A DNA stretch of 16,643 nt from a virus (lineage: Duplodnaviria > Heunggongvirae > Uroviricota > Caudoviricetes), in IMG/VR virus record IMGVR_UViG_2548876934_000006, positions 1 through 16,643 of that record. The stretch is one strand, 5' to 3'. Position 1 is the first letter of the stretch; every line of letters begins with the position of its first letter. Shown one piece after another: positions 8,312 through 10,052 of the stretch. A program made the position numbers and the translations under genes. The notes below the pieces were generated by a model. The model saw only the letters and a program-made list of their open reading frames with translations. It was not told where the DNA came from and searched no databases.

Positions 8312-9892
8312 ATGTCGATTAAACATTACGATGTTGTCAGGGCGGCGTCGCCGTCAGACCTTGCGGAAAAGCTGACACACAAACTGAAAGAGGGCTGGCA
8401 GCCATACGGCGGACCGGTTGCCATTACGCCGTACACACTGATGCAGGCGGTGGCTATTGAAGGAGAGCCACAGGTCGGCCCTTCATCTGAGCCGGATTGG
8501 TACTACGTCATCGTACTGGCCGGGCAGTCCAATGCCATGGCTTACGGTGAAGGGCTTCCGCTGCCGGATTCATACGATGCTCCGGATCCGCGCATTAAAC
8601 AGCTGGCGCGCCGCAGTACAGTGACGCCGGGCGGGGCTGCCTGCAGATATAACGATATTATTCCGGCTGACCACTGTCTGCATGATGTGCAGGATATGAG
8701 TACGCTGAATCATCCGAGGGCTGACCTGAGCAAAGGGCAGTACGGCTGTGTCGGTCAGGGTTTACATATTGCCAAAAAACTGCTCCCGTATATCCCGAAT
8801 AACGCGGGGATCCTGCTGGTACCATGCTGTCGTGGTGGTTCGGCATTTACCCAGGGCGCGGAGGGGACATTCAGCGAGTCCACGGGGGCCAGTCAGGATT
8901 CGGCACGCTGGGGGGTGGGCAAGCCGTTATATCAGGATCTGATTTCCCGCACAAAAGCGGCATTGCAGAAAAATCCCAAAAACGTTCTGCTGGCCGTCTG
9001 CTGGATGCAGGGTGAGTTTGACATGAGCGCCGCCACCCACGCACAGCAACCTGCGCTGTTTACAGCCATGCTGACACAGTTTCGTGCTGACCTCTCCGTG
9101 TTTAACGCGCAGTGCCATGGTGGCAGTGCTGCAGATGTGCCGTGGGTTTGTGGTGACACGACGTATTACTGGAAAAATACATACGCTACCCAGTACGACA
9201 CCGTGTACGGCGGGTATAAAAACAGGGAGAGTGAGGGCGTTTATTTTGTGCCCTTCATGACAGATGGTAACGGCGTCAATACCGCCACTAACGCGCCGGC
9301 AGAAGATCCGGATATTCCGGCATCAGGATATTACGGTGCGGCATCGAGAACGAATGGAAACCAGGTATCATCAAACCGCCCGACACATTTCAGTTCATGG
9401 GCGCGCAGGAGCATTATTCCGGATCGTCTGGCAACCGCTATTCTGAACGCAGCCGGGCGCACCTCAGCCTTCATCAGTGGTAAGGCACCGGAAATCAAAC
9501 CCTCGCCCGGCGGCAACACGCCATCGGGTCCGTCTGCAGATACGTCCGTTCGCACAATCTCCCTGCTGCCGGCAGCCGGAGAGGCTGCTGCGCAGGGCTG
9601 GAGCATTAAGGATGGCGGAATTCAGTTGTCAGATGGTGTATTTAAGATCACCAAGCAGAGCAATAAAACCTGGTCCCTGACGCATCCGGTGGATGACGCA
9701 ATTACCCTGCTGACACAGGGCGGCAGACTGACCTGTAAGTTCCGCCTGTCAGGCGCACTGACCAACAATCAGTTCGGGCTGGGGATTTATCTGTATACGG
9801 ATGCTCCCGTTCCTGATGGTGTGGCGATGACGGGTACCGGAAACAACGCGCGGCGCTCTTTACTCGTTCGTTTACAACGTGGGCGCTGGTAA
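8312..9892 (+). CDS. nanS-p: NanS-p-like prophage sialate O-acetylesterase (N-terminal DUF1737-like domain plus SGNH/SASA esterase domain); 3' end replaced by out-of-frame R lysozyme sequence, so probably C-terminally truncated
   Basis: GGGAGA Shine-Dalgarno then ATG 8312. N-terminus [48 protein letters not shown] resembles the DUF1737 domain of prophage esterases; [16 protein letters not shown] carries the GQSN motif of sialate O-acetylesterases. The last about 20 codons (...[16 protein letters not shown]) read an R lysozyme remnant in another frame. Confidence 0.75.
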
Positions 9893-10052
9893 TTTCAGAA
9901 CATCGACGCTTCTTCGCAAAATAAACCAGGGTGATATCAAAGGCGCATGTGACCAGCTACGTCGCTGGACATACGCTGGCGGTAAGCAATGGAAAGGGCT
10001 GATGACCCGTCGTGATATTGAGCGTGAAGTCTGTTTGTGGGGGCAGCAATGA
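9834..10052 (+). pseudogene. R: 3' remnant (72 codons) of a phage lysozyme gene R (DLP12 RrrD-like endolysin); 5' two-thirds deleted
   Basis: Frame ending at TGA 10050-10052 encodes [72 protein letters not shown], matching the C-terminus of lambdoid lysozymes such as DLP12 RrrD as I recall it. An in-frame stop sits at 9828-9830 and there is no start codon. The stop overlaps the Rz ATG (ATGA), the normal R/Rz junction. Confidence 0.8.

Follow-up and report, generated by a model that had tools for sequence, protein, structure and literature searches.

The window analyzed here, i.e. the whole 16,643-nucleotide stretch of the Caudoviricetes record IMGVR_UViG_2548876934_000006, represents a heavily decayed, phage-434-like prophage adjoining torT in an attaching-effacing-type lineage of Escherichia coli. 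In its late region a gene for a SASA family carbohydrate esterase runs directly into the 3′ end of a phage lysozyme gene, and this arrangement is with high probability a deletion scar left by ordinary prophage decay. As proposed in the original prediction, a deletion has joined the 3′ region of the esterase gene to the middle of the lysozyme gene R: at the DNA level both arms are 100% identical to intact genes of related prophages, so that the resemblance is not due to chance, and the 1,261-bp gap between them has ends sharing the sequence TACCGG. Reference loci are E. coli FHI_NMBU_03 (L002), the prophage found at mdtA in RM14723, Z1323HEC0355 and other strains (L006/L007) and the curated phage 434 genome OL657226.1 (L008). 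The junction and the genes around it are composed as follows.

8312..9892, plus strand: chimeric esterase open reading frame (ORF), 526 amino acids, ATG start, comprising a DUF1737 domain, a NanS-like SASA catalytic domain, the first half of a jelly-roll and an alien tail of 15 residues
9835..9840, unstranded: deletion junction with the microhomology TACCGG, from a three-way alignment of the window, the L002 esterase and the L006 rrrD
9841..9892, plus strand: lysozyme-gene DNA read in the esterase frame, encoding the alien C-terminal tail and the stop codon
9834..10052, plus strand: 3′ remnant of a signal-arrest-release (SAR) endolysin gene of the rrrD/R21 type, 72 residues in a frame other than that of the esterase, without a start codon of its own
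10049..10486, plus strand: Rz i-spanin gene, intact, 145 amino acids (Pfam Phage_lysis PF03245, E=1.5e-34, 119.3 bits)
10248..10433, plus strand: Rz1 o-spanin lipoprotein gene inside Rz in the +1 frame, start uncertain between ATG 10248 and ATG 10254 (PF06085, E=2e-20, 72.7 bits)

Deletion junction

The left arm (8312-9840) shows no mismatch to the L002 esterase gene; identity to L002 holds over 8255-9840 and similarity collapses from 9841 onwards. The right arm (9835-10612) likewise shows no mismatch to the rrrD-Rz region of L006, and the esterase and lysozyme arms overlap in the 6 bp TACCGG (9835-9840). The breakpoint could thus be located by alignment, as had been suggested, although it lies at 9835-9840 and not at 9825-9835 as first estimated. 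Compared with the intact L002 arrangement the missing 1,261 bp comprise the last 105 esterase codons (512-616), a 447-nt spacer, a P21-type pinholin gene and endolysin codons 1-94.

A megablast search of 8200-10500 against 5,426 complete E. coli genomes returned one collinear match of 100% identity, in strain Z1323HEC0011, while hundreds of other matches contain the same query split into two pieces that span 3,562 bp instead of 2,301 bp. A 140-nt probe centred on the junction likewise matched end to end in only one of the 5,426 genomes, and thousands of rrrD matches begin at position 65 of the probe, which confirms the right-arm boundary at 9835. By our own calculation a microhomology of at least 6 bp is expected at about one in 1,000 random junctions; since it is so rarely expected by chance, microhomology-guided illegitimate recombination is indicated. 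Insertion sequence (IS)-mediated deletion is not supported, as neither IS sequence nor an IS end is present at the window junction, where only the 6-bp microhomology is found. In some relatives (H17, H18, H23) an IS3-family element lies between the esterase gene and rrrD. A search against Rfam returned nothing in or near the esterase/lysozyme junction.

The junction itself can be read directly from the alignment. The 1,261 bp would have been removed by one illegitimate recombination event at the 6-bp repeat, the likely mechanisms being replication slippage or another RecA-independent, microhomology-mediated deletion and, less likely, exchange between co-resident prophages.

The exact 526-residue protein is encoded on 12 contigs under several independent NCBI accessions; 11 of the contigs share the same neighbours. 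The twelfth (L005, JAOWRY010000026.1) keeps the junction and carries a further deletion that starts at about Rz codon 5 (4752 onward; window position ~10062) and extends into the 5′ part of nleB2, showing that decay continues in the lineage. Over the 16.6 kb the window differs from Z1323HEC0011 by one single-nucleotide polymorphism and one homopolymer indel. Prophage repeats often misassemble and the genome contains a second R-Rz copy (two places in the record), so that a chimeric contig or sequencing artefact has to be considered. The identical junction recurs in a closed chromosome as well as on 11 additional contigs of other assemblies, which makes this explanation exceedingly unlikely, and it was rejected; the additional downstream deletion on one contig implies independent descent and speaks against an artefact, too. 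Because the junction is present in the closed genome of Z1323HEC0011 and in the 12 contigs with the exact protein, it is a heritable feature of a small lineage and not an assembly artefact.

Lysozyme remnant and spanins

The ORF of the esterase ends, as originally described, inside sequence that encodes the 3′ end of a lysozyme in another frame (plus strand, 9834..10052); of the 72 codons assigned to it, only 71 complete codons plus 2 nt are lysozyme-derived. The remnant matches the Pfam profile Phage_lysozyme (PF00959) at positions 65-125 of 125 only (E=4.4e-23) and aligns with residues 95-165 of the 165-residue RrrD lysozyme, its DNA being 100% identical to L006 rrrD from 9835 onwards. The Prokaryotic Genome Annotation Pipeline (PGAP) flags this rrrD fragment as 'incomplete; missing N-terminus' in locus L001. 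Intact L006 RrrD (165 amino acids) contains an N-terminal hydrophobic SAR segment and the residues Glu35, Asp44 and Thr50, all of which fall within the deleted residues 1-94. From the work on P21 R/R21 we take Glu35/Asp44/Thr50 to be the catalytic triad of SAR endolysins. Starting at residue 95, the remnant possesses neither the SAR helix nor this triad. Judged from its sequence it cannot be an enzyme, because a proper start is missing and SAR helix and triad are deleted. A functional esterase-lysozyme fusion generated by frameshifting was also considered and rejected, as the remnant lacks the catalytic triad and there is no sign of a slippery site.

The lysozyme stop codon TGA (10050-10052) overlaps the annotated Rz start codon ATG (10049) as ATGA, just as had been noted. 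Rz (WP_001357156.1) is the same protein as in the intact prophages L006/L007, and with Rz1 embedded in the +1 frame the pair has the organization of a two-component spanin. When the 16.6-kb window was searched by tblastn with the pinholin, the N-terminal half of the lysozyme and the C-terminal 105 residues of the esterase, none of them was found elsewhere. For a P21-type pinholin (PF04971) upstream of R no tblastn match in the window was better than E=2; the L002 pinholin, a protein of 68 amino acids, scores 112 bits with this profile. The predicted absence of an S holin and of an intact R is hence borne out, and with pinholin and endolysin residues 1-94 deleted and Rz/Rz1 intact, so is the description of a lysis-defective prophage that retains only its spanins. 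In lambdoid lysis, spanins act only after membrane permeabilization and murein degradation. By all appearances the prophage cannot lyse its host alone, because it has neither holin nor catalytic endolysin and the intact spanins have nothing to act after.

Intact relatives and parentage of the two arms

In L002 the gene order is a 616-residue SASA esterase, a 447-nt spacer, a 68-residue class II holin (P21 S family), the 165-residue RrrD lysozyme and Rz. The late region of phage 434 reads Q, membrane protein, TciB/DUF3927, terminator, esterase, pinholin, SAR endolysin and i-/o-spanin; the claim that the esterase normally precedes S-R-Rz therefore agrees with both. Apart from the 1,261-bp gap, whose ends share TACCGG, the window has the same collinear order. 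A tblastn search of phage genomes with the 616-residue esterase found the SASA family carbohydrate esterase of phage 434, UMO75335.1, at 100% identity. Relative to phage 434, the window is 99.8% identical over cro-cII-O and 99.7% over 6892-9843.

The right-hand side has a different affinity. Q, the R remnant, Rz and the whole right arm (9835-10612) are 100% identical to the L006/L007 prophage, which contains intact holin and endolysin genes and no esterase, while the identity of R-Rz to L002 is about 97% and to phage 434 about 85%. Among intact genomes the best reach an overall identity of 99.0%, and all their mismatches fall in the R-Rz arm. CP-933K of EDL933 was considered as parent, since its rrrD matched a short junction query, and was dismissed because there is no esterase there.

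This mixed affinity would also be expected if two co-resident lambdoid prophages, one of the 434 type with esterase and one of the L006 type without, had recombined illegitimately to form the junction, the intervening DNA being lost later. Identity is 100% between the left arm and the 434/L002 type, and likewise 100% between the L006/L007 type, which lacks the esterase, and the window's right arm, Q and Rz; no single intact parent exists among the 5,426 complete genomes. Given the mosaic nature of lambdoid phages, however, a parent combining these features is plausible. An exchange between prophages would normally be expected to leave the chromosome extensively rearranged, but collinearity with both types is preserved in the stretch that extends from Q to the esterase. 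We consider the inter-prophage route unlikely; the outcome, a truncated esterase without S or R, is the same under either route.

Some points weigh against a simple deletion scar. The database contains no undeleted genome with both arms at 100%, the right-identical L006/L007 prophage being esterase-less, and the one-step deletion within a single prophage is consequently deduced from a hypothetical mosaic parent. Moreover, over its 1,529 nt the esterase arm does not differ from phage 434 and leaves no divergence by which selection on the truncated gene could be gauged. Most likely, the direct parent is another lambdoid mosaic absent from the databases. According to the deletion model it would have been a lambdoid, 434-like prophage with a Q-dependent late operon of membrane protein, DUF3927, 616-residue esterase, pinholin S, SAR endolysin R and Rz/Rz1, whose esterase would have consisted of a DUF1737 capsid anchor, a NanS-like SASA domain and a lectin-like jelly-roll.

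The truncated esterase

The ATG of the 526-residue ORF is preceded by the Shine-Dalgarno sequence GGGAGA, as seen in the ORF list and in the raw sequence. The DUF1737 N-terminus and the GQSN motif noticed at first reading are recovered at residues 4-49 (Pfam PF08410, 57 bits) and 71-74, respectively. The Pfam profile SASA (PF03629) matches residues 66-262 with 49.2 bits at a cut-off of 24.8, which places the protein in this family. Hallmarks of SASA enzymes are block I GQSN with the catalytic serine and the oxyanion glutamine, the (H)QGE motif and the block V histidine (PMC9487903). The corresponding SASA/CE6 motifs, GQSN, QGE (233-235) and the histidine block RPTH (356-359), are all kept and align with the same motifs of chromosomal NanS/YjhS (PDB code 3pt5), with which residues 60-379 align in a comparison against PDB (E=1.3e-122). 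By sequence, the window gene is accordingly assigned to SASA/CE6, as a derivative of the NanS-p-type three-domain phage esterases.

The product equals the 616-residue phage 434 protein through residue 511, an asparagine that is kept by coincidence at the junction, and continues with 15 out-of-frame residues derived from lysozyme DNA; the suspected truncation is thereby established. In the full-length 616-residue esterase, residues 421-613 align to NanS-p's C-terminal domain (PDB code 6yp6), a jelly-roll proposed to be a carbohydrate-binding module (CBM; PMC8065619, PMC10462455). This is in line with the original statement that prophage NanS-p esterases are longer and carry a C-terminal carbohydrate-binding region. 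The match of the 526-residue protein to this domain ends at residue 511, so that a complete jelly-roll is absent: the cut lies near its middle and about 100 of about 190 domain residues are gone. According to the 6yp6 alignment the equivalents of Tyr540 and Phe611 are removed, i.e. two of the four aromatic residues proposed as carbohydrate binders (numbering of PMC10462455). The Pfam profile DUF6645 behaves in the same manner, with a sub-threshold fragment at residues 467-516 (profile positions 1-50 of 119, 21.3 bits at a cut-off of 27) as compared to 65.9 bits over profile positions 1-115 in the intact 616-residue relative.

The window protein has its closest full-length relative in the esterase of phage 434 (616 amino acids) and not in a Shiga toxin (Stx)-phage NanS-p (645 amino acids), and phage homologues measure about 610-657 amino acids. 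The 526-residue protein might instead be a natural, selected short form or a domain-shuffled variant: PGAP annotates it as an ordinary coding sequence (WP_024222066.1) without pseudogene flag, and it is conserved on 12 contigs. Full-length homologues of about 526 residues with the same ending would have pointed in that direction, but the relatives have 616 residues and the last 15 residues of the window protein are the out-of-frame translation of lysozyme DNA that is 100% identical to rrrD. Besides, the esterase sequence breaks off midway through the jelly-roll, well short of the length range of the phage homologues, and the junction occurs in one of 5,426 complete genomes. The probability of such an isoform is practically negligible, and it was rejected on account of the out-of-frame tail.

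In the virion-bound homologue gp84 of phi24B the C-terminal jelly-roll is reported to be shed by proteolysis, leaving a stable esterase fragment of ~35 kDa, and DUF1737 to act as a capsid-decoration anchor (2026 preprint, bioRxiv 10.64898/2026.04.10.717836). By analogy, the catalytic domain of the 526-residue protein probably still folds and hydrolyses 9-O-acetyl sialic acid, because chromosomal NanS consists of the catalytic domain alone and gp84 sheds its C-terminal domain. The half jelly-roll and the nonsense tail may lower solubility or stability, and substrate or carbohydrate targeting would be lost. Capsid display would be lost as well, since the prophage has no capsid, and export would be possible only if another prophage lyses the cell. 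A search of the literature yielded nothing decisive on the activity of C-terminally truncated NanS-p.

Late-operon surroundings

The esterase gene lies between Q upstream and Rz/Rz1 downstream; only the relatives L002 and L008 show the full arrangement of Q and S-R-Rz. Upstream of the esterase gene the following features were found.

6150..6773, plus strand: late-gene antiterminator Q, 207 amino acids, head of the late operon (Pfam Antiterm PF03589, E=6e-58)
7026..7769, plus strand: membrane protein, late-operon cargo, 247 amino acids (WP_001302581.1 in L001, L002, L003, L006 and phage 434)
7855..8013, plus strand: DUF3927 small membrane protein, from annotation (TciB in the phage 434 record)
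8199..8227, plus strand: hairpin resembling an intrinsic terminator, GGCTGCGCATTGCGCAGCC and then T8, located 85 nt upstream of where the esterase starts, from a terminator scan

The Q protein (WP_001235438.1) is identical to Q of the intact prophages L006/L007. A Pfam search of the 247-residue membrane protein gave no match. An equivalent of the 8199-8227 hairpin is annotated as terminator in the phage 434 record (L008 8888-8916), and the window hairpin presumably functions as such, too. A promoter scan yielded no excess over the shuffled expectation. At the esterase site, esterase-less prophages contain a gene of 132 amino acids on the minus strand, a 3′ fragment of which survives at window positions 8094-8335. 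A further intrinsic-terminator-like hairpin, ATGCCTCGC-AGAT-GCGGGGCAT followed by TTTTTG, is located just 3′ of Rz (10528-10556, plus strand). It is absent from the consensus-scan output and could reduce the extension of late-operon transcription into nleB2.

Wider decay and effector cargo

Besides the late-operon cargo the prophage retains exo/bet/gam/kil/cIII, N, a LexA-family repressor, cro, cII and Q. An Rfam match to Lambda_thermo, the cIII thermoregulator element, at 1471-1529 (minus strand, 88.5 bits) was obtained, and the early left operon looks intact. Terminase, head and tail genes are all absent; homology to intact prophages ends at 10612/10613, i.e. 126 nt after Rz. The downstream cargo consists of nleB2, an nleC fragment, nleH, cif, a gene for a DUF1076 protein and espJ, and only scraps of tail-fibre and tail-fibre-assembly genes are interspersed between these effector genes. 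A second deletion scar is found on the replication side.

5497-6153, junction at 5911-5915: O-ninI chimera with the 5-bp microhomology TATCC

Here a 434-type O gene, cut in the iterons of the replication origin (ori), is joined, with the reading frame maintained, to the 3′ end of ninI, a phosphatase gene. PGAP calls the resulting chimera of 218 amino acids a 'replication protein'; about 3.9 kb are missing, including part of ori, P, ren and ninB-G. At least three deletions, the one at the esterase-lysozyme junction included, have thus affected a remnant that is defective in replication, lysis and assembly. The event at this junction would represent one step in a progressive decay in which origin, P, nin and morphogenesis genes were also lost, whereas immunity genes, Q and the type III effectors were kept.

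Two observations concern the effector genes themselves. In cif (13734-14558) the window has a run of eight A residues (~14545-14552) as compared to seven in Z1323HEC0011, resulting in a protein of 274 amino acids ending ...NIEKKH versus one of 282 ending ...NIEKNIEIIKSLCS; this is either a real frameshift at the C-terminus of the effector or a homopolymer sequencing error. The nleC fragment (12021-12311) is an ORF of 96 amino acids, annotated as lacking its C-terminus, between intact nleB2 (11007-11987) and nleH (12629-13510).

The loss of S, R, replication and morphogenesis functions may have turned the late operon under SOS and Q control into a non-lethal expression cassette, amounting to domestication for metabolism and virulence. 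Upon induction the cell would then produce a cytoplasmic NanS-like esterase without CBM, a spare NanS for imported 5-N-acetyl-9-O-acetylneuraminic acid (Neu5,9Ac2), and transcription might run through Rz/Rz1 into nleB2, nleH and cif, 0.5-3 kb downstream, with the host not killed. Such a role seems quite unlikely.

Comparison with known systems

The closest known arrangement is the late region of phage 434, with which the window shares the esterase (100% identical through residue 511) and upstream of it the same membrane protein, DUF3927/TciB, terminator and ribosome-binding site. In contrast to phage 434 the window is devoid of esterase residues 512-616, the spacer, the pinholin, endolysin residues 1-94, P, the nin genes and the morphogenesis genes, and its Q and R/Rz alleles belong to another lambdoid type. 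The NanS-p esterases of Stx phages (933W Z1466; phi24B vb_24B_21/gp84; 6yp6) resemble the parental esterase in the DUF1737-SASA-jelly-roll plan, in the position between Q and the lysis cassette and in the SGNH/SASA blocks, the RPTH variant of the histidine block being the one described for prophage 86. They differ in having 645 amino acids with a full-length identity of ~52-58% and a C-terminal domain of a different sequence group, and no stx gene is found upstream of the window esterase. Chromosomal NanS (YjhS, 3pt5) aligns end to end with the catalytic domain; it lacks DUF1737 and jelly-roll, whereas the window protein has DUF1737, a broken half-domain and a nonsense tail.

With cryptic ('grounded') lambdoid prophages such as DLP12, CP-933K/Sp3 and effector-carrying remnants, the element has in common the piecemeal loss of replication, lysis and morphogenesis functions while regulation and cargo, here nleB2, nleH, cif and espJ, are kept. 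Unlike DLP12 and CP-933K, where S-R-Rz is intact, it is devoid of S and of the portion of R that is needed for catalysis. Microhomology-mediated decay of lambdoid prophages is already known, and so is C-terminal disruption of nanS-p, e.g. by IS elements (PMC10462455).

Significance

Being a known kind of event, the deletion matters little beyond annotation. The RefSeq entry WP_024222066.1, named 'SASA family carbohydrate esterase', is a truncated chimera and is unfit as an exemplar or length standard of the family. If the enzyme is active, the 526-residue protein would constitute a natural experiment on the dispensability of the jelly-roll in NanS-p-type esterases, a purpose that a designed truncation would serve equally. 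For the host lineage, the element is an effector prophage unable to lyse its host, to replicate or to form particles, which fixes its nleB2, nleH, cif and espJ cargo in the chromosome.

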